A stretch of 14,461 nucleotides of DNA from an uncultured Deinococcales bacterium (GCA_964244895.1 CAXTKV010000057.1:10496-24956); one strand, 5' to 3'. Shown: positions 119 to 13,782, numbered from the stretch's first letter. Numbers and translations are program-made. Notes: generated from the letters alone by a model not told the origin.

Positions 119-181
119 GAAAAAGACCGTCCAGCACGCGAATTTCGAATGCTCGAGAAGACCGTGCTGGACGGTCTTCTC
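119..181. repeat. Paired palindromic element, copy 1 (35-bp spacing); possible dhaKL terminator
   Basis: Perfect 16-bp inverted repeat, AAGACCGTCCAGCACG (123-138) with CGTGCTGGACGGTCTT (163-178). The second unit is itself palindromic (155-181). On the minus strand the stem is followed by TTTTT. Confidence 0.9.
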
Positions 182-1976: not shown

Positions 1977-2037
1977 GAGAACAACGTCCAGCACGCACAT
2001 TTTTGGCATCGAGAATTCACGTGCCGCACGGTCTTTC
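1977..2037. repeat. Paired palindromic element, copy 2 (degenerate, 35-bp spacing)
   Basis: GAGAACAACGTCCAGCACGC ... CGTGCCGCACGGTCTT; centres at 1990 and 2025. Confidence 0.75.
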
Positions 2038-2190
2038 CACGCAACCTCGCCCAATTCATCCGGCGCCTAGCGGAATCTTCAGGTGCGCTGCGCCGAAACC
2101 ACCCCATGCGAAGGTCTGATCGGCGCGTGGGCAACACCCGTGAGCGGGTTCATGAAATCGACATCCTGACCGAAGCGTGAGCCGCACCAC

Positions 2191-3426: not shown

Positions 3427-4416
3427 ATGAAGAAAGCCATGATTCTCGGAGCTGGACTGCTGGTCGCCGCCGCCACGGGCGGAGTTCTGGCGCAGAAGAA
3501 ATACACGATCTACACGGTCGTCAAAATCACCGGCATCAACTGGTTCAACCGCATGGAAGAAGGCGTCAAGCAATACGCCAAGGACACCGGCAACAACGCC
3601 ACCCAGACCGGCCCCGCCCAGGCGGACGCCGCCCAGCAGTTGCAGGTCATCACCGACCTGGTGGCCAAGAAGCCAGACGCGCTGGCGGTCGTGCCATTCG
3701 ATCCGGCCACGCTGGAACCGATCTTCAAACAGGCGATCGATCGCGGCATTAAGGTCGTGACCCACGAAGCCGACAACCAGGTCAACACCCTCTACGACAT
3801 CGAAGCCTTCGACAACGTGGCCTTCGGCGCGAACCTGAACGCGCGCCTGGAAAAGTGCATGGGCGGCGCGGGCAAATGGACAGTCTTCGTCGGTAGCCTG
3901 GGATCGAAAACCCACAACCAGTGGGCGGACGGCGGCATCGAGAACGCCAAGAAGAACTCGAAGATGGTGCTGGTGGACGCCAAGCAAGAAACCAACGACG
4001 ACGCCGACAAAGCCTACGAGAAAGCCAAGGAAATCATCAAGAAGTACCCGGACATCAAGGGCTTCCAGGGCAGCGCCAGCACCGACGTGGCCGGCATCGG
4101 TCGCGCCGTGGAAGAGGCCGGGTTGAACGACAAGGTCTGCGTTTACGGCACCAGCCTGCCCTCGATCGCCGGTAAGTACATCGCCACCGGCGCGGTCGAC
4201 GGCATCGGTTTCTGGGACCCGAAGGACGCTGGCATCATCATGAACAAGGTCGCGCAGATGGTGCTCGAGGGCAAGACCGTCAAGGACGGCGCGGACCTGG
4301 GCATCAAGGGCTACAACAAGGTTTCCGTCACCAAGGGTAAGGGCGCTGGTTTCGTGATTCGCGGCAACGCCTTCGTGGACGTGGACAAGAGCAACTACAA
4401 GGAATTCCCGTTCTGA
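3427..4416 (+). CDS. Sugar ABC transporter substrate-binding protein (type 1 PBP, LsrB/AI-2-like subfamily)
   Basis: Sec signal peptide [58 protein letters not shown] and [17 protein letters not shown]. Confidence 0.9.
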
Positions 4417-4433
4417 TCTGAAGCAATAATGCA

Positions 4434-4486
4434 AACACCGTCCAGGACGCGATTCCTGAAGTGCGTCCCGGACGGTGTTCTCGAGA
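4434..4486. repeat. Paired palindromic element, copy 3 (25-bp spacing)
   Basis: AACACCGTCCAGGACGC (4434-4450) with GCGTCCCGGACGGTGTT (4463-4479), one mismatch, followed by CTCGAG. Confidence 0.9.
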
Positions 4487-4660
4487 AGCGGATCGAAGTG
4501 CAATGGTGCATTCCTCGGAACGCCGAAAGGTCAACTCGAGATTCGCCTTCAAAGCAACGTCAAGACGGTTCGAACGCGGAGCGGCGGACGCGCGCTCGAG
4601 CACCAGGTGAGTCCTGATGACTTGCACACCACACACAACGCGAAAACAAGAGAAAACCCA

Positions 4661-6208
4661 ATGACGACACCGACAAACGCGCACAACCTCAAACCCGGCG
4701 ACGAATTCCTGGCGCTCAACGACATCACCAAAACCTTCGGCGGCGTGCGCGCCCTGCGCGGCGTCAGCCTGAGCATCCGCGCGGGCGAGATCTACCACTT
4801 GCTGGGCGAGAACGGCTCAGGGAAATCGACGCTAATCAAGATCGTCTCCGGCGCGCAACCGCCCGACAGCGGCACGATGACGGTGCGCGGCAAGGAATAC
4901 AGGAAGCTCGAGGCGCTCGAATCGCTCGAGGCGGGCATCGAGACGGTCTACCAGGACTTGAGCCTGTTCCCGAACCTGAGCGTCGCGGAAAACGTGGCGC
5001 TGACCGCGCAGCTCGTGCAGAACGACGGGCGTCTGGGGCGAATGCTCAACTGGAAGAAACTCCAGGAGACCGCCAGCAGCGCCCTGGAACGCGTCGGGCT
5101 CGAGTCCACGACGGAATTTCTGGATCAAAAAGTCGAAAGCCTGCCGATCGCCGTGCGGCAACTCGTGGCCATCGCCCGTGGGCTGGCGACCAGCGCGTCA
5201 TTGGTGATCATGGACGAACCCACGGCGGCGCTGACGCAAAAAGAAGTCGAGAACCTGCTCTCGATCATCTCGAGCCTGCGCGCGGACGGGGTGAGCGTGC
5301 TGTTCGTCAGCCACAAACTCGACGAGGTTTTCCGCATCGGCGGCAACGTGATCGTGCTGCGCGACGGACTGAAAGTCGCGGATGGCAAGCTGAGCGATTA
5401 CAGCCAGGAGCAAATCAGCTTCCTGATGACCGGCAAGCACCTGGACAAAACCAGCTACCGCACCGGCAAGCCCGGCGCACAGGCGCTCCTCGAGATCAAA
5501 GGGCTCTCGCGCAGCGGGGCATTTTCAGGCGTGAGCTTCAACCTGCACCGGGGCGAGGTGCTGGGCATCACGGGCTTGCTGGATTCCGGGCGCAACGAAC
5601 TGGCGCTGGCGATTTCTGGCGTGCAACCCGCAGACGGCGGCCAGATCGTGCTGGACGGTCAAACCATCAGCGTCCAGAACCCGCGCGATGGCATCCGGCT
5701 CGGCATCGGCTACGTGCCCGAAGACCGACTGACCGAAGGTTTATTCCTGCAAAAACCGATCCGCGAGAACATCGTGGTCAGCATCCTGGATCGATTGATG
5801 CGCGGCAACCAGATCGACTTCCAAAAAAGCACCCTCGCCACCGAAACACTGGTCAAGGATTTGCAGATCGCCACGCCGAACGTGATGCTGCCCGCCCAGA
5901 GCCTGTCCGGTGGCAACCAGCAACGCGTGATGGTCGCGCGCTGGCTGGCGATCAACCCGAAAGTGCTGCTGCTGCACGGCCCGACCATGGGCGTGGATGT
6001 CGGCAGCAAGGACGCTCTCTACAGGATCGTGCAAGATTTAGCGCAGAAGGGATTGGGCGTGATCATCATTTCCGACGACCTGCCGGAATTGTTGATGAAC
6101 TGCGATTCGATTCACGTCATGAAAAAAGGCCGCATCGCCCGAACCTTTCAGGTCGAAGGGCTCGAGGAATCCGTGTTGTCTCACGAACTCCTGACCGAGG
6201 CCGCATGA
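4661..6208 (+). CDS. Sugar ABC transporter ATP-binding protein (two fused ABC domains, RbsA/MglA type)
   Basis: Walker A GENGSGKST, Q-loop VYQD, IMDEPT, VSH, YVPEDR and LSGGNQQ. Start taken as ATG 4661 because the ORF-track extension to 4475 begins inside a repeat. Confidence 0.93.
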   Translation: MTTPTNAHNLKPGDEFLALNDITKTFGGVRALRGVSLSIRAGEIYHLLGENGSGKSTLIKIVSGAQPPDSGTMTVRGKEYRKLEALESLEAGIETVYQDLSLFPNLSVAENVALTAQLVQNDGRLGRMLNWKKLQETASSALERVGLESTTEFLDQKVESLPIAVRQLVAIARGLATSASLVIMDEPTAALTQKEVENLLSIISSLRADGVSVLFVSHKLDEVFRIGGNVIVLRDGLKVADGKLSDYSQEQISFLMTGKHLDKTSYRTGKPGAQALLEIKGLSRSGAFSGVSFNLHRGEVLGITGLLDSGRNELALAISGVQPADGGQIVLDGQTISVQNPRDGIRLGIGYVPEDRLTEGLFLQKPIRENIVVSILDRLMRGNQIDFQKSTLATETLVKDLQIATPNVMLPAQSLSGGNQQRVMVARWLAINPKVLLLHGPTMGVDVGSKDALYRIVQDLAQKGLGVIIISDDLPELLMNCDSIHVMKKGRIARTFQVEGLEESVLSHELLTEAA

Positions 6209-6221
6209 GCGCCGCAGCACC

Positions 6222-6270
6222 CGAGAAGACCGTCCTGGACGCGAAATATAAAGTGTGTCCAGGACGGTGT
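6222..6270. repeat. Paired palindromic element, copy 4 (25-bp spacing)
   Basis: ACCGTCCTGGAC (6229-6240) with GTCCAGGACGGT (6257-6268), a perfect 12-bp inverted repeat. Confidence 0.9.
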
Positions 6271-6329
6271 CCCATGCAACTTCCAGAATCAATCCAGCAT
6301 CTTCAAATTGACTCGACTCGAGGTCAGAC

Positions 6330-7343
6330 GTGTCCGTGATCGCACCGACGCAACCCAGAACCCCGATCCGCGCCTGGCGGTCGTTTACCCGCCGACCCGA
6401 GTTCATCACGCTCGCCCTGATCGTGGTGTTTTCCCTGGCGGTCGGGATCATCAACCCGAATTTTTTCTCGCCGAAGACCGTGACGGACACGCTGCGCGCT
6501 TCCATTACCACGGGCATTTTCGCGTTGGGCGTGCTGCTGGTGCTGGCGGCGGGCGGTATCGACGTGTCGTTCACAGCCATCGCGATTTTCGCGCTCTATT
6601 CCACTACCCGGCTGATGCTGGCAGTCTGGCCGGGCGCGCCGTACCCGGTGATGATCCTGTTGTGCCTGGGCATCGGCTTGCTGATGGGCATGCTGAACGG
6701 CTTCCTGGTGTGGCGCTTCGCCGTGCCGTCCTTGATCGTGACCATCGGCACGCAGTATTTGTTCAGCGGCTTTCTGAAAGCCTTCATCGGCAGCAGGCAC
6801 ATCATGGACATCCCCGCCGCGATGGATTCGGCGGGCACGACCGCGCTCTTTCAGACCGTGACCGCCGACGGCACGCGCATCGCCGTACCGATACTGGTGC
6901 TGGTGCTGGTGCTGGCGATTATCGTGACGTGGTTCATCTTGAACCGCACGCTGCTGGGCCGCGCCGTCTACGCCGTCGGCGGCAGCATCCCGATCGCGGA
7001 ACGGTTGGGGTTCAGCGTGCGCACCGTGATGCTGTTCGTGTTCGGTTACGCGGGCATGTTGGCCGGATTGGGCGGACTGATGCACGGGTCGTTGAACCGT
7101 CAGGCCAACCCGTCCGATCTGGTTGGCTCTGAACTGAACGTGATCGCGGCGGTCGTGCTGGGCGGTGCGCGCATCACGGGCGGCACGGGCACGGTGCTGG
7201 GCACGCTGTTGGGCGTGGTGCTGATCGAGTTGCTGACCAACAACCTGATCCTGATGGGCGTGCCTTCCACCTGGCAAAAAGTGGTGATCGGCGTGATTAT
7301 TCTGGCGGCCAGCGGCGTGTTCTCGAGGCGCGGTACAGCGTGA
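6330..7343 (+). CDS. Sugar ABC transporter permease (CUT2)
   Basis: GGIDVSF, GMLNGFLV, PSLIVTIGT, TLLGRAVYAVGG and ELNVIAAVVLGGARITGGTGTVLGT; GAGG upstream of the GTG start. Confidence 0.92.
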   Translation: MSVIAPTQPRTPIRAWRSFTRRPEFITLALIVVFSLAVGIINPNFFSPKTVTDTLRASITTGIFALGVLLVLAAGGIDVSFTAIAIFALYSTTRLMLAVWPGAPYPVMILLCLGIGLLMGMLNGFLVWRFAVPSLIVTIGTQYLFSGFLKAFIGSRHIMDIPAAMDSAGTTALFQTVTADGTRIAVPILVLVLVLAIIVTWFILNRTLLGRAVYAVGGSIPIAERLGFSVRTVMLFVFGYAGMLAGLGGLMHGSLNRQANPSDLVGSELNVIAAVVLGGARITGGTGTVLGTLLGVVLIELLTNNLILMGVPSTWQKVVIGVIILAASGVFSRRGTA

Positions 7344-7346
7344 TGT

Positions 7347-7462
7347 ACCGATCTGGACGGGTTTCTCGGGCATTCGCAAAAAGATCGTCCCAGACGGCTT
7401 TCCTTGCATTGAACGCCCTCGCTCGAGCACGCGCATCACTCAATCTGGACGGTGCTCTCGAG
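7347..7462. repeat. Palindromic element cluster, copy 5 (three degenerate units)
   Basis: ACCGATCTGGACGGGTTTCTCG, AAGATCGTCCCAGACGGCTTT and CTGGACGGTGCTCTCGAG; centres at 7354, 7391 and 7446. Confidence 0.7.
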
Positions 7463-7476
7463 GGAAGTGAACGGGC

Positions 7477-8727
7477 TTGAGTTACCGAATTCTCGACGCT
7501 GAGACCGTTCTCGAGTACATGCAGTCGCACCCGAAAGCACGGGATGTGATCGACGTTGACGCCCCCCTTCAGAGCGCGGAACTTTCGGATGGCAACCTCA
7601 ATTTCGTGTTTCGGGTTTTTGAAAAAGACCGTCCAGAACGCAGCATCCTGGTCAAGCAGGGCGTTCCTTACTTGCGCGTGGCGGGTGAATCCTGGCCGCT
7701 CTCCCCTGCCCGTGCGGGCTTCGAAGCCCGCGCGCTCGAGCTTCAGCACCGTTTCGCGCCGGGGCTGGTGCCGACACCGTACTGGTTCGACGAGACCATG
7801 TGCGTCAACGCAATGGAAGATTTGCGCCACCACAACGTCATGCGCAAACCGATGGTGGATCGTGTGCGGTTCGAGCATCTCGGCGCGACGATTGGAGACT
7901 TTCTCTCGAGAACGCTGTTCGGCACGTCGGATTTTGGGCTCGAGGCGAAGGAGAAAAAAATGCTTCAGACCCGATTTGCCAACGCGGAACTCTGCGAGAT
8001 CACCGAGGATTTGATTTTCACCGAACCGTTCGAGCCCGCGCTGCTGGGAGGCAAATCCAACCGCAACCGCTTCGATCCTGGAATCAAAAACACGCTCGAG
8101 ATGCTCCAAGCTGATCTCGAGGTCAGGGCGCAAGTCTCGAGCCTCAAGCACCGCTTCATGACGGTGGCGCAGGCGCTCTTGCACGGCGACCTGCACACGG
8201 GTTCGATCATGGCTTCCGACCCGGACGAGAAAGGTGCATCGGATATTCGGGTGATCGACCCGGAGTTCGCGTTCTTCGGCCCGGCCGGATTCGACGTGGG
8301 GTTGTTCGTGGCGAATCTTTTTTTGAACGCCAGCGCTCAAGCCGGTCACGCGCCTGATGAAGACTCGAGAACCGCGTACCGGACGTATTTGTTTGGTCAG
8401 GCCAGGGCCTGCTGGACGGTCTTCGAGGGCGGTTTCCGCGAGCGTCTCCACTCGTCCAACAGCGTTTCGTGGCGATCCCGAGCGTTCCGTGACGCGTTCA
8501 TGCTCGAGGTGCTGCAGGACGCGGCGGGCTTCGCGGGCTGCGAGATGATCCGCCGAAGCGTCGGTTTCGCGCACGTTCTCGACGTGGACAGCATCGCGGA
8601 TGACGCGAAACGCGCCGAAGTGCTCGAGATGAATCTACGCGTAGGTTCAGAACTGATTCGGTCGCACCGAACCATCTCGAGTTTCAATGAAATCGAGGGT
8701 ATCGTAAAAAGCGTGATTCGCGCATGA
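7477..8727 (+). CDS. mtnK: S-methyl-5-thioribose / 5-deoxyribose kinase
   Basis: DGNLNFVF, VKQ..PYLR..GESWPL, LCEITEDLIFTEPF, LLHGDLHTGSIM, IDPEFAFFGP.GFDVG and GFAGCEMIRR motifs. Confidence 0.95.
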   Translation: MSYRILDAETVLEYMQSHPKARDVIDVDAPLQSAELSDGNLNFVFRVFEKDRPERSILVKQGVPYLRVAGESWPLSPARAGFEARALELQHRFAPGLVPTPYWFDETMCVNAMEDLRHHNVMRKPMVDRVRFEHLGATIGDFLSRTLFGTSDFGLEAKEKKMLQTRFANAELCEITEDLIFTEPFEPALLGGKSNRNRFDPGIKNTLEMLQADLEVRAQVSSLKHRFMTVAQALLHGDLHTGSIMASDPDEKGASDIRVIDPEFAFFGPAGFDVGLFVANLFLNASAQAGHAPDEDSRTAYRTYLFGQARACWTVFEGGFRERLHSSNSVSWRSRAFRDAFMLEVLQDAAGFAGCEMIRRSVGFAHVLDVDSIADDAKRAEVLEMNLRVGSELIRSHRTISSFNEIEGIVKSVIRA

Positions 8728-9785
8728 TTCAGCCCGTCCCGACCGTGGTTTTCGAGAACGACACCGTGAGCTTGCTCGATCAGACCTTGCTGCCGCTCGA
8801 GCGCAAAATGATCGAGATTCCGGACGCCGAAAGTATGTGGGAAGCCATTCAGGTTTTGCGGGTGCGCGGCGCTCCGGCCATCGGCGTGGCGGCGGGGTTC
8901 GGGCTGTGGCTGGGCGTCAAGGGCGTGCCGGATGACGCACCTCGAGAAACCTTCCTGGCGAGGCTCGAGGAGGTTCGGGCGTACCTGGCGACCTCGCGCC
9001 CGACCGCCGTGAACCTGTTCTGGGCGCTGGATCGGGTGGTCGCCGGGACTCGAGCATCGGTTGGAACGGTCGCAGGAGAACTCAAGAAGACCGTCCTGCA
9101 CGAAGCGCTGGCCATTAAAGCCAGTGAGGAAGCCACGTCGCTCGCCATCGGAAAGTACGGCGTGCCGCTCCTGAACGGTGTTCAGAACGTGCTAACGCAC
9201 TGCAACGCGGGTTCGCTTGCCACGACGGGCATCGGTACGGCGCTCGCCCCGATTTACGCGGCGGCGGCGCAGGGGCAGATCGTGCACGTCTACGCCGACG
9301 AGACGCGCCCGTTGCTGCAAGGCTCCCGACTGACCGCCTGGGAATTGCAGCAGGCCGGGCTGCCCGTGACGGTCATCACCGACAACATGGCGGCGACCGT
9401 CATGCGCGACAAGAACATCGGCGCGGTCATCGTCGGATGCGACCGCGTGGCGGCCAACGGGGACTTTGCCAACAAGATCGGCACCTACGGCGTGGCCATA
9501 CTGGCTCGAGAACACGGCATTCCTTTTTACGTGGCCGCACCGTTCAGCACGATCGATTTCGGCACGCCGGACGGGTCGCGGATCGAGATCGAGCAGCGCA
9601 GCGCGTCGGAAGTCACGAGTTTCGGCTCGAGGCGCACCGCGCCGGATGGCGTGGACGCGTTCAACCCGGCGTTCGACGTGACCCCCGCGAAGTACGTCAC
9701 GGCCTTCATCACCGACAGGGGCGTCATTGAGGCCCCGTACACGGAAAATCTGGCGCGGGCTCGAGAGGCGTTCGAGGTCGGCTGA
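8724..9785 (+). CDS. mtnA: S-methyl-5-thioribose-1-phosphate (5-deoxyribose-1-phosphate) isomerase
   Basis: LLDQTLLP, VRGAPAIG, RPTAVNL, THCNAGSLAT, DETRPLLQGSRLTAWEL, ANKIGTY and NPAFDVTP; ATGA overlap with the mtnK stop. Confidence 0.96.
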   Translation: MIQPVPTVVFENDTVSLLDQTLLPLERKMIEIPDAESMWEAIQVLRVRGAPAIGVAAGFGLWLGVKGVPDDAPRETFLARLEEVRAYLATSRPTAVNLFWALDRVVAGTRASVGTVAGELKKTVLHEALAIKASEEATSLAIGKYGVPLLNGVQNVLTHCNAGSLATTGIGTALAPIYAAAAQGQIVHVYADETRPLLQGSRLTAWELQQAGLPVTVITDNMAATVMRDKNIGAVIVGCDRVAANGDFANKIGTYGVAILAREHGIPFYVAAPFSTIDFGTPDGSRIEIEQRSASEVTSFGSRRTAPDGVDAFNPAFDVTPAKYVTAFITDRGVIEAPYTENLARAREAFEVG

Positions 9786-9797
9786 ACTCGAGCAGAA

Positions 9798-9851
9798 CGA
9801 GAACACCGTCCAGCACGCGAATACAAAACACCGTCCTGGACGGTGTTCTCG
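9798..9851. repeat. Paired palindromic element, copy 6 (25-bp spacing)
   Basis: 20-bp arms CGAGAACACCGTCCAGCACG and CGTCCTGGACGGTGTTCTCG with one mismatch; the second unit is the perfect palindrome AACACCGTCC-T-GGACGGTGTT (9827-9847). Confidence 0.92.
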
Positions 9852-9864
9852 GAAAGGTGAGCGA

Positions 9865-11850
9865 ATGGAAAGCCTCTGGGACGACGCACAAGCAGCCAAA
9901 TGCACGACGGAACTCGAGCTGCGGGCGTACACGTCCAGGTTGCTGGGCGCTCGAGAAGACCTGGTGCTGGCGGGCGGTGGCAACACGTCGGTCAAGCTGA
10001 GCATGACGGACGTGTTCGGACAGGATCTCGCGGGCATGTGGGTCAAGGGCAGCGGCGGCGCGCTGGTCAGCATCACCCAAAAAGGTTTCGCACCCGTCAG
10101 GTTGGATCATCTGCTGGCGCTCTCGAACCTCGAGAAGCTGTCCGACGCGGACATGATGCGCGAGTACAGCTTGAGCCTGCTCGACCCGGACGCGCCCTTC
10201 CCGAGCGTCGAGGCGATCCTGCACGCGCTCCTGCCGCACACGTGGGTGGATCACACGCACGCCGACGCCCTAGAAACCATCATGGACACGCCCTCCGGCG
10301 AGGCTCGCGTGCGCGAACTGTACGGCGAGACCGTCGTGTACGTGCCCTACGTCATGCCGGGATTCGATCTGGCGCTGGCCTGCAAAAAGGCCTACGCGGA
10401 GCAGGCGTCGCATAAAACCATCGGCATGGTGCTGCTGCACCACGGCATTTTCTCGTGGGGCGAGACCGCGCGGGAATCCTACGAACGCATGATCGATCTG
10501 GTCACGCGAGCTGAGCAGTACCTCGAGGTGCGTGGCGCGTGGCATCTCGAAATCCAGAAGCCCGAGGCGGCGAAACCGCTCGGTGCCGACATCGCGCGGC
10601 TCCGGCACGAGATATCCAGCGTCGCGGGCGCACCGATGATCGTGCAACGGTTGGAGGACGATCTGAGCATCGCCTTCTCGAGACGAGCCGATATTTCAGA
10701 CGTGGCGACGCGCGGCCCCGCAACCGTGGATCACGTCTCCTGGACGAAACACCAGCCGTTGATCGGGCGAGACGTTCGGGCCTACGCCGACGCCTACCGC
10801 GCGTATTTCGAGCGCCACGCATCCACGGCCCGCACCGGTTCGACCCTGGCCGAATTGAGCATGATCGACCCTGCGCCGAGGGTCGTGATCGACGCGCGGC
10901 TGGGCGTGCTGACGGCGGGACGCACCGTGCCCGACGCGCGCACGACGGGCAAGATTTACGCGCAGACCATCCAGATGATCGAGCGCGCCGAACGACTGGA
11001 ATCGTGGAACACGCTGCCCGAAGGACAATTCTTCGAGATCGAATACTGGGAATTGCAGCAGGCCAAATTCAAGAAAGGCCCGAAGCTCCCGGACTTTTCC
11101 GGCGAGGTGATGCTGGTCACGGGCGCGGCCTCCGGCATCGGCAGGGCGTGCGCGGAAGCGTTTCTGGCTCGAGGCGCCGCCGTCGTCGGGCTCGACCTGA
11201 ACGCCAGCATCACGACCACGTTTGAGCGACCCGAGTACCTGGGCATCCAGTGCGACGTGACCGACGAGAACGCGATTCAGTCCGCGCTCGAGCGAACCGC
11301 GCAACGCTACGGCGGGCTGGACATGCTGGTGCTGAACGCCGGAATTTTCCCCTCGAGCGAGATGATTTCTTCGCTCGACCTCGAGCGTTGGCAGCGCGTC
11401 ATGCGCGTCAACCTGGACGCCAACCTGAGCCTGATGCGAGAAGCGCACGGGTTGCTGAAGCTCGCGCCGAACGGCGGGCGAGTCGTGGTGATCGCGTCTA
11501 AGAACGTGCCCGCACCGGGGCCTGGAGCGGCGGCCTACAGCGCATCCAAGGCCGCACTGACCCAACTGGCTCGGGTTGCCGCACTGGAATGGGGCGCGGA
11601 CGGGATTCGCGTCAACGTGCTGCACCCGAACGCCGTGTTCGACACGGGCATCTGGACGGAAGACGTGATTTCAAAACGCGCCGAGAGCTACAAGCTGAGC
11701 GTCGAGGAATACAAGAAGAACAACGTGCTGCACACGGAAGTCTCGAGCGCGAACGTCGCGGAATTGGCAGCGGTGATGTGCGGGATGGCGTTTGCGAAGA
11801 CGACGGGGGCGCAACTCCCGATTGACGGCGGGAACGACAGGGTCATTTAG
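9865..11850 (+). CDS. Bifunctional class II aldolase / short-chain dehydrogenase (RhaD-SDR, RhaEW-like fusion)
   Basis: N-terminal GGGNTSVK, WVKGSG, PSVEAILH, VDHTHAD and HHGIFSWG; linker EYWELQQAK; C-terminal SDR motifs TGAASGIG, NAG and YSASK. Start taken as ATG 9865 after GAAAGGTGA because the ORF-track extension crosses the mtnA end and a repeat. Confidence 0.9.
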   Translation: MESLWDDAQAAKCTTELELRAYTSRLLGAREDLVLAGGGNTSVKLSMTDVFGQDLAGMWVKGSGGALVSITQKGFAPVRLDHLLALSNLEKLSDADMMREYSLSLLDPDAPFPSVEAILHALLPHTWVDHTHADALETIMDTPSGEARVRELYGETVVYVPYVMPGFDLALACKKAYAEQASHKTIGMVLLHHGIFSWGETARESYERMIDLVTRAEQYLEVRGAWHLEIQKPEAAKPLGADIARLRHEISSVAGAPMIVQRLEDDLSIAFSRRADISDVATRGPATVDHVSWTKHQPLIGRDVRAYADAYRAYFERHASTARTGSTLAELSMIDPAPRVVIDARLGVLTAGRTVPDARTTGKIYAQTIQMIERAERLESWNTLPEGQFFEIEYWELQQAKFKKGPKLPDFSGEVMLVTGAASGIGRACAEAFLARGAAVVGLDLNASITTTFERPEYLGIQCDVTDENAIQSALERTAQRYGGLDMLVLNAGIFPSSEMISSLDLERWQRVMRVNLDANLSLMREAHGLLKLAPNGGRVVVIASKNVPAPGPGAAAYSASKAALTQLARVAALEWGADGIRVNVLHPNAVFDTGIWTEDVISKRAESYKLSVEEYKKNNVLHTEVSSANVAELAAVMCGMAFAKTTGAQLPIDGGNDRVI

Positions 11851-11851
11851 T

Positions 11852-11900
11852 ACCGTCCAGCACACGTTCTCAAATCCGTGTCCTGGACGGTGCTCTCGAG
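11852..11900. repeat. Paired palindromic element, copy 7 (25-bp spacing)
   Basis: ACCGTCCAGCACACG (11852-11866) with CGTGTCCTGGACGGT (11877-11891), followed by GCTCTCGAG. Confidence 0.9.
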
Positions 11901-13662: not shown

Positions 13663-13697
13663 CGGCGTCCGGCGCAGCTGTGGCAAGAGCGTGACGG

Positions 13698-13750
13698 GAA
13701 GACCGTCCAGCACGCGAATTCTTTGATCTCGAGAGCACCGTCTGGGACGC
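13698..13750. repeat. Paired palindromic element, copy 8 (35-bp spacing)
   Basis: AAGACCGTCCAGCACGCGAATT (13699-13720) is identical over 22 bp to 123-144; the second unit is CTCGAGAGCACCGTCTGGGACGC. Confidence 0.88.
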
Positions 13751-13782
13751 TCTACTGGAAATGATTCAGGTTTGAGGGCGGG

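Follow-up and report, generated by a model that had tools for sequence, protein, structure and literature searches.

The window, a 14,461-nucleotide stretch of DNA from an uncultured Deinococcales bacterium (positions 10496-24956 of contig C57), carries a short repeat. In this genome (G000; 5.12 Mb in 328 contigs, 62.7% GC, 91% complete) the repeat behaves between genes like the repetitive extragenic palindromic (REP) sequences and their hairpin-forming doublets (REPINs) and inside genes like a weak DNA uptake sequence (DUS) or uptake signal sequence (USS), and it fits the definition of neither. The explanation which we prefer, with a probability of about 0.4, is that a lineage-specific REP-like repeat, spread by insertion, is now a predicted dimer-bound DNA site, single copies of which are gained by genes through in-place substitution. 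According to this model the repeat would have spread between genes by insertion, each arm would be recognised as double-stranded DNA by a dimeric candidate protein inside the cell, and the two spacing classes of paired arms would set two dimers a helical turn apart. The single copies in genes would arise where codons are under little constraint, by substitutions that a weak pull toward the site favours, with selection as the probable force.

For scoring, a matrix of 20 columns was derived from intergenic copies alone (maximum 31.3 bits), and genes were called with a hexamer model, which gave 4,533 genes and 80.6% coding sequence. Because mis-calls near gene starts are possible, counts against null models were restricted to gene interiors, with the first 90 and the last 30 bases dropped. 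The original prediction, that the frequency of the motif in genes is more than the encoded proteins dictate, is borne out by amino-acid-preserving shuffles: 107 matches of at least 20 bits (a count that includes doublets and sites counted twice because of the palindrome) were found in 4,087 of the 4,533 genes, whereas 30 rounds of synonymous shuffling within genes gave 17.0 ± 3.2. Unpaired sites taken alone also exceed a dicodon null (92 versus 34.2 ± 4.1 at 18 bits or more, 36 versus 10.1 at 22 bits and 26 versus 4.9 at 24 bits), so that their excess over amino-acid-preserving nulls is 2.7-5.3-fold. Paired sites number 42 versus 2.3, and 14 permuted matrices, used as a control, gave 24 matches versus 35 expected. 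Under a richer null, better matches have a higher ratio, rising from 1.4 at 8-10 bits to 6.3 at 24 bits or more, and 53 permuted matrices stay at 1.0 ± 0.2, with maxima of 1.5-1.9. An independent check is provided by the T-rich mirror flank, which lies outside the matrix and is enriched at strong in-gene singles (59 T versus 27.2, z 6.9). Both orientations occur, as had been predicted, with 48 sense and 44 antisense copies among the unpaired in-gene sites of at least 18 bits. The sites prefer variable protein patches and poorly conserved genes, as the available text of PMC2817400 reports for uptake sequences, and their density falls from 62 per Mb in the tercile of genes with the lowest identity to 14 per Mb in that with the highest. 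They also lie farther from intergenic copies than composition-matched chance matches do (p 0.002-0.012). This could hint at even spacing, for which the peak at 1.2-1.6 kb is post hoc and a within-gene test gives p 0.14-0.36; strong sites are more numerous in long genes.

In the window, the in-gene matches comprise two that are firm, four that are moderate and two that are noise. All six motif strings quoted in the original prediction are present where it placed them, 7621-7641 being 95% identical to 119-139. As copies embedded in genes, those at 7622 in mtnK and 9084 in mtnA are strong, and those at 5647 in the ATPase gene and at 1625 are at chance level. The mtnK copy (7622..7641, plus strand, 26.4 bits) encodes E-K-D-R-P-E-R in a variable stretch of a protein whose gene is intact (7477..8727, plus strand; TIGR01767, 442 bits, above cut-off). 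It aligns gap-free with six of eight same-family orthologues, the remaining two being three residues shorter there. In a sister organism (run X1), the sequence of which is about 87-93% identical over the window, it is kept without an indel and with one synonymous change, 7635 A>C, at the variable centre of the motif, a retention of limited weight because 7600-7720 is little diverged there anyway (three changes among those listed). The mtnA copy (9084..9103, plus strand, 25.6 bits) encodes K-K-T-V-L-H-E, also in an intact gene (8724..9785, plus strand; TIGR00512, 420 bits, above cut-off), and is gap-free against all eight same-family orthologues; a further 80 mtnA loci, all distant, were left out of the comparison. 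The five closest of the eight read K-N-[AS]-V-L-[AT]-[EQ], with K, V and L in register and three residues different.

The four moderate copies are one in antisense in mtnK (8407..8426, minus strand, 14.0 bits), two overlooked by the original prediction (7908..7927 in mtnK, plus strand, 15.5 bits, and 11716..11735 in the aldolase/short-chain dehydrogenase gene, plus strand, 17.3 bits) and one in the sugar-binding protein gene (4270..4289, plus strand, 16.5 bits). The first of them encodes C-W-T-V-F and aligns without gaps to all 14 homologues; the eight same-family orthologues all share C-W-x-x-F, only T-V being specific. Its membership in the family is uncertain, since about half of the matches at 14.0 bits are chance. 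The ATPase match (5639..5660, 9.5 bits at 5639-5658) encodes I-V-L-D-G-Q and was excluded from the family. Its L-D reads L-E in the three orthologues listed, out of seven loci, and G.I.[LVIF]DG is present in 9 of 41 ABC-like open reading frames (ORFs) of G003, a relative without the motif. The match at 1625-1635 scores below 9 bits. From the null rates, the roughly 11 kb of gene interior in the window should hold about 0.03 matches of at least 24 bits (two were seen), about 0.4 of at least 14 bits (six were seen) and about 2.6 of at least 8 bits, so the ATPase and 1625 matches are the yield of chance. The window was chosen for these matches and sits at the top of the genome range, the maximum in any of 305 blocks of 11 kb being five.

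Whether the copies in genes arose by substitution or by insertion can be read from alignments with orthologues, and it is mostly the former that the single copies suggest. The comparison with G003 comprised 1,165 reciprocal pairs drawn from 2.2 Mb of its 4.5 Mb. Of 18 unpaired sites of at least 22 bits with an orthologue, 11 are gap-free, three are near a gap, two are insertions and two lie outside the alignment, in line with the gap-free alignment of the copies in mtnA and, mostly, mtnK. The gap-free blocks, 2,748 in number and covering 340,359 codons, contain 32 sites of at least 18 bits, where 11.8 are expected from the residues of the genome under study and 3.1 from those of G003 written in the codon use of the former; reversed proteins gave 1.4 and the DNA of G003 itself one site. 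The excess thus has a synonymous part and an amino-acid part. Tetrapeptides that the motif can encode number 273 versus 166 in G003 (165 versus 143 in reversed controls). G003 is 51% GC, a possible source of bias, and the reversed-protein controls are alike in both genomes (1.4 and 2.5). Protein identity at the 11 gap-free strong sites is 0.41, compared to 0.44 in their flanks and 0.07 at random.

These data also bear on a very unlikely alternative, namely that in-gene copies are in-frame REP or miniature inverted-repeat transposable element (MITE) insertions or their trimmed remains and that the rest are codon coincidences. It suits the paired sites of at least 22 bits (n=20), of which five are insertions, four are near gaps, nine lie outside the alignment and two are gap-free. 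About a third of the unpaired matches of at least 18 bits are expected by chance, and intragenic REP insertions are on record in the available text of PMC3733652. However, a tenfold excess persists in gap-free blocks and residues are in register with those of orthologues, by which this alternative is largely refuted for the singles. Decayed partners are moreover rare at in-gene singles (3% at +25 versus 16% for intergenic singles), and decayed doublets were accordingly rejected as the source of in-gene singles. Whole doublets are found in frame in long proteins at C7:42986-43035, C25:8751-8802, C61:6153-6199 and C274:3656-3700; some of these in-frame doublets are insertions relative to G003 and one, in gene 1905, is gap-free.

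Genome-wide, 4,749 non-redundant arms of at least 14 bits form 2,931 elements, namely 1,776 doublets, 1,135 singles and 20 larger groups. The full unit is a pseudo-palindrome of about 27 bp, GAGAACAC-CGT-N5-ACG-GTGTTCTC, its inner half usually decayed to a T-rich trace, and the CGT-N5-ACG core carries mirrored AA/TT flanks. The degree of conservation depends on the position, with 2.3 bits at the core T and 0.3 bits at the centre. Centre-to-centre spacing in doublets peaks at 25 (722), 26 (110), 35 (490) and 36 (181), which is a step of 10 bp, and the spacers are nearly all unique (702 of 752 distinct). A dimer-bound site fits this positional pattern of conservation, a spacing that stays constant while the spacers vary, and the step of 10 bp. 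All three intergenic doublets that were folded form hairpins (z -5.2 to -8.4), whereas folding gave no RNA hairpin at the single copies in mtnK (7622, z 0.15) and mtnA (9084, z -0.5). In-gene singles without a hairpin, in the two copies folded, and facing both ways indicate that the agent acts on DNA and not on RNA. A hairpin within the single unit was considered and rejected, as covariation between its halves is confined to the ±8 position, where the 35-bp class and gene singles show it. A transcription-factor operator was also rejected, as the elements are rarest in divergent gaps. Strand bias is absent: singles lie 189 with and 193 against transcription, and consecutive singles have the same orientation in 199 cases and different orientation in 242. 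A polar recombination or segregation signal of the Chi or KOPS type is therefore unlikely.

Several observations weigh against a dimer-bound site acquired by substitution. No binding protein was found for the repeat. The main spacings could reflect a pair of old subfamilies, and smaller classes of 36 and 20 pairs exist at 30/31 and 41, respectively. Covariation is seen between the arms of 25-bp doublets (for example 29 versus 7.5 and 105 versus 47.4 shared minor variants), suggesting that the arms pair in a hairpin, are corrected by template switching or are copied as a unit, rather than being independent sites. Elements are denser in convergent gaps (3.74/kb) than in divergent ones (1.89), and 76% of 867 elements lie at gene 3' ends, which is what RNA hairpins or tolerated insertions would give. 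The excess at 8-12 bits, taken alone, is within the range of the permuted controls. The in-gene excess is also small, at some 60 unpaired sites over 3.5 Mb, and selection would need a fitness gain per site able to change amino acids. Gaps fall at or close to five of the 16 strong singles within alignments, compared to 8% of background windows. Finally, substitutions at strong sites are less conservative than those in flanks (mean BLOSUM -0.59 versus 0.0), as patches made in one step would give.

This last point favors a neutral spill-over, which we consider rather unlikely: single-stranded copies of the approximately 4,700 arms would pair with similar sequences in genes and replace these in a single step, the in-gene copies being functionless and purifying selection on the proteins leaving only tolerated patches. 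Such an event would resemble short-patch illegitimate recombination (SPDIR), a mechanism described in the available text of bioRxiv 10.1101/2023.11.22.568220. In accordance with it, gap-free sites often differ at several adjacent residues (ENTV versus CTPM in gene 2294), an entire doublet is gap-free in gene 1905, 13 sites of at least 24 bits, versus about zero from G003 residues, resemble whole copies, and the T-rich flank would be co-copied. However, the same source, as far as its available text goes, describes SPDIR as rare and below detection in the wild type. No donor signature was seen either, the longest exact match of 58 in-gene singles to another site being on average 20.6 nt versus 19.6 in flank-swapped controls. 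The distance to intergenic copies is larger for in-gene singles (median 1155 bp) than for random coding positions (690 bp), intergenic variants show no local clustering, identity at the sites does not fall relative to the flanks, and position-specific conservation is not explained by copying alone. Templated copying from neighbours in particular was rejected, as intergenic variants do not cluster genome-wide (0.156 versus 0.159 ± 0.012) and in-gene singles are not near intergenic copies. One remnant is left for it: neighbours of the 23 in-gene singles with the minor G variant carry G at 0.217, versus 0.119 for 61 others. About half of the sites in the window carry this variant.

For the intergenic copies, the preferred model supposes spread by insertion within one lineage. 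An exact 14-mer of the motif has 660 copies in the genome under study and 0-2 in each of 40 relatives, and the doublet pattern occurs 353 times there and in none of 363 other genomes of the phylum, the genus being represented in this comparison by the genome under study alone. The motif is also present in the sister organism (run X1) and in three metagenome contigs; the metagenome search returned no stretch with the strict doublet pattern and three with the relaxed one, and viral sequences returned none. On two of the three sister-lineage metagenome contigs the orthologous element keeps its position and outer arm and differs in centre and spacer, and the 12-nt spacer length is kept in the one such contig seen in full (L239). 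Compared to G003, gaps with an element are 90 to 98 bp longer (n=120) and those without one 9 bp longer (n=212), and 36-45% of the G003 gaps opposite doublets are shorter than 45 bp. This gain in length points to an origin by insertion between genes, with the caveat that it exceeds the 51-61 bp of the element and that longer gaps may simply collect more elements. The earlier suggestion of a selected signal rather than a mobile element is not supported in that form, given the length gain of about 90 bp at intergenic copies and the frequent insertions among in-gene doublets. No target-site duplication was found, a 4-bp direct flank being present in at most 18 of 752 doublets at any single offset. 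G003 (loci L113-L232) has its own unrelated low-copy repeats, with top 14-mers at 12-26 copies in 2.2 Mb.

The original prediction likened the motif to uptake sequences, and part of this likeness stands. The in-gene excess, both orientations, gap-free alignment and shifted amino acids agree with it, and a pseudo-palindromic site with just 5% of copies in genes does not. In the available text of PMC2817400, the DUS/USS of Neisseria and Pasteurellaceae share with the repeat in-gene singles facing both ways, intergenic inverted pairs, enrichment of the encoded peptides, a preference for poorly conserved genes and positions and scarcity in some parts of the genome; they differ from it in that the repeat is pseudo-palindromic, has 5% of its sites in genes and brings a gain in length between genes. 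A true uptake sequence, preferred by a surface or periplasmic receptor and driven into genes by transformation, the intergenic excess being left from the seeding repeat, is in our estimate unlikely. It would account for the footprint in the proteome (peptide enrichment, poorly conserved genes), to which uptake is the best-known route, for copies in both orientations and for 40 contigs (409 kb) that are nearly free of the motif. ComEC is present, and seven ComEA-like domain matches in six genes were found versus one to five matches in 18 relatives. ComEA is generally a non-specific DNA binder, which counts against this reading; ComP is the sequence-specific DUS receptor in Neisseria. The profile PF16732, used to look for such a receptor, had no match in the genome under study nor in any of 14 control genomes, and PF04555 had no match anywhere, control genomes included. 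Strong sites touch the interiors of 116 of the 4,533 genes; among 3,962 such sites, only 197 (5%) are inside called genes, about 95% being outside. In the available text of PMC2817400 (Table 1), 34.5-65% of DUS/USS copies are in genes, so the share here is about a seventh of the lowest value, and uptake sequences are described there as not palindromic, whereas the site is. A 9-mer core of the motif has 156 of 2,149 copies in genes, and motif 9-mers in genes are just 1.2-1.7-fold over the null (ranks 50 to 4,578). It is decidedly improbable, in our view, that the family represents a third independent origin of uptake sequences at an early stage, in which a mobile REP-like repeat seeds thousands of copies in one lineage, a competence protein comes to prefer them and uptake bias starts to rewrite the proteome through substitutions.

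Two side observations belong here. The six small ComEA-like helix-hairpin-helix genes lie on C39, C115, C206, C225 (two) and C240, with more domain matches than in any of the 18 relatives. The 40 motif-poor contigs (C5, C15, C36, C50 and 36 more) are CTCGAG-rich yet have a G003 partner for only 39 of 334 genes, and are possibly plasmids, islands or mis-binned contigs.

Between genes the repeat most resembles REPs and REPINs as presented in the available text of PMC3116915 and PMC3733652: a short imperfect palindrome, thousands of copies, restriction to one lineage, a mostly intergenic location, inverted doublets folding as hairpins, bias to 3' ends and some copies in frame within genes. REPs are defined in the available text of PMC3733652 by a terminal GTAG or CGTC tag followed by a stem of 5-13 bp, whereas no tag precedes the stem here, CGTC lying inside the palindrome and GTAG being absent. 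The two spacing classes 10 bp apart, the unique spacers and the register of most aligned in-gene singles, which are not inserted, are further differences. No REP-associated tyrosine transposase (RAYT) flanked by the repeat was found; PF01797 (RAYT) has no match in this 91% complete assembly and matches in 16 of 18 relatives. One RAYT-like ORF (C12:40619-41188; NF047646, 50 bits, under cut-off) has its own unrelated GTAG-tagged palindrome, with one copy at its 5' end, one inside and two exact copies in the assembly. From MITEs the repeat differs in having neither a target-site duplication nor conserved internal sequence (702 distinct spacers). No cognate transposase was found among the families searched (DDE_Tnp_1, and IS110, which is absent; other transposase families were not searched), as three of five DDE_Tnp_1 matches have no motif nearby, one has a single weak site and the remnant on C225 is not bounded by the motif. 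That remnant (C225:6016-6720) is a frameshifted DDE transposase in single copy, situated between two motif elements. A parent transposon was not recognised either, since inspection by eye of gene N-termini in 58 stretches bounded by inverted single arms, made without a family scan, showed no transposase and one phage-integrase-like product.

Other families share single traits with the repeat. According to the available text of PMC2229807, Rickettsia palindromic elements are palindromic repeats in frame in proteins, like the in-gene doublets here, and differ in being insertions of 105-146 bp. The same text describes Caulobacter CIR elements as two arms and a linker with a short methylation-type motif, and the repeat here often begins with CTCGAG; CIRs differ in their length of about 110 bp, in their conservation between species and in being absent from genes. 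Cyanobacterial HIP1, in the available text of PMC5861425 and bioRxiv 10.1101/2024.09.10.611283, is an abundant palindromic DNA word in and between genes with proposed roles in chromosome structure or transformation. It is an 8-mer spread through coding DNA, and here it is the CTCGAG hexamer that acts so, not the 20-27-bp motif.

We found no description of this motif, of an uptake sequence in the phylum or of a REP-like family entering genes by substitution in the literature covered, which did not extend to subscription papers and supplements; Additional file 3 of PMC3733652, on intragenic REPs, may bear on the last. Short bacterial repeats usually fall into two classes, those that spread through insertion (REP, REPIN, MITE) and those that accumulate through substitution (DUS/USS), and the family described here shows both. 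The effect is solid but small. Should a protein be what selects the site, a repeat confined to one lineage would have turned into a binding site present across the chromosome. Should uptake be what selects it, the family would be a new uptake system and would show how systems of this kind can start, with the first signal coming from a selfish repeat. Should copying be responsible, proteins would be mutated by abundant repeats through templating, a possibility that is seldom taken into account.

The remaining copies in the window are intergenic. Doublets of the 35-bp class lie at 120..181 (arms of 28.0 and 27.9 bits; hairpin of -36.7 kcal/mol, z -8.4), 1977..2038 (22.9 and 17.8 bits) and 13696..13757 (26.0 and 22.7 bits), and those of the 25-bp class at 4431..4482 (26.3 and 28.8 bits; hairpin z -5.2), 6223..6274 (27.9 and 18.4 bits) and 9799..9850 (30.1 and 30.7 bits; hairpin z -7.8). 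The doublet at 11846..11897 has one decayed arm (9.2 and 24.2 bits), and a degenerate pseudo-palindromic unit upstream of mtnK, at 7378..7404, scores 21.3 bits on the plus and 15.4 bits on the minus strand around a common centre. The genes of the window comprise a DhaKL-like pair, a sugar ABC transporter, mtnK, mtnA, the aldolase/dehydrogenase, kynureninase and a phosphatase; 11 of the 12 ORFs have an NCBIfam match, and the 12 reading frames called by the hexamer model agree with those of the ORF list, except that three start later. The longest ORF at 4475-6208 begins within an intergenic doublet, and the coding model places the start at 4661; an annotation by longest ORF would thus wrongly assign part of the repeat to the ATPase.

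CTCGAG is a HIP1-like hexamer common to the family of this bacterium. It has about 21,900 copies in the genome under study (4.3 per kb; 3.8 in genes and 6.4 between them) and 70 sites in the window, and it heads 535 of 1,147 GAG-starting intergenic arms, versus a background of 30%. Samples of four same-family genomes (46-60% GC) contain 4.7-6.9 copies per kb and six loci of another family less than one. Other palindromic hexamers are strongly avoided in this genome, namely GGCGCC, CGGCCG (60 copies versus 6,442 expected), CCGCGG, CCCGGG, GCCGGC, CGATCG, TCGCGA and GACGTC, which suggests past or present restriction systems.

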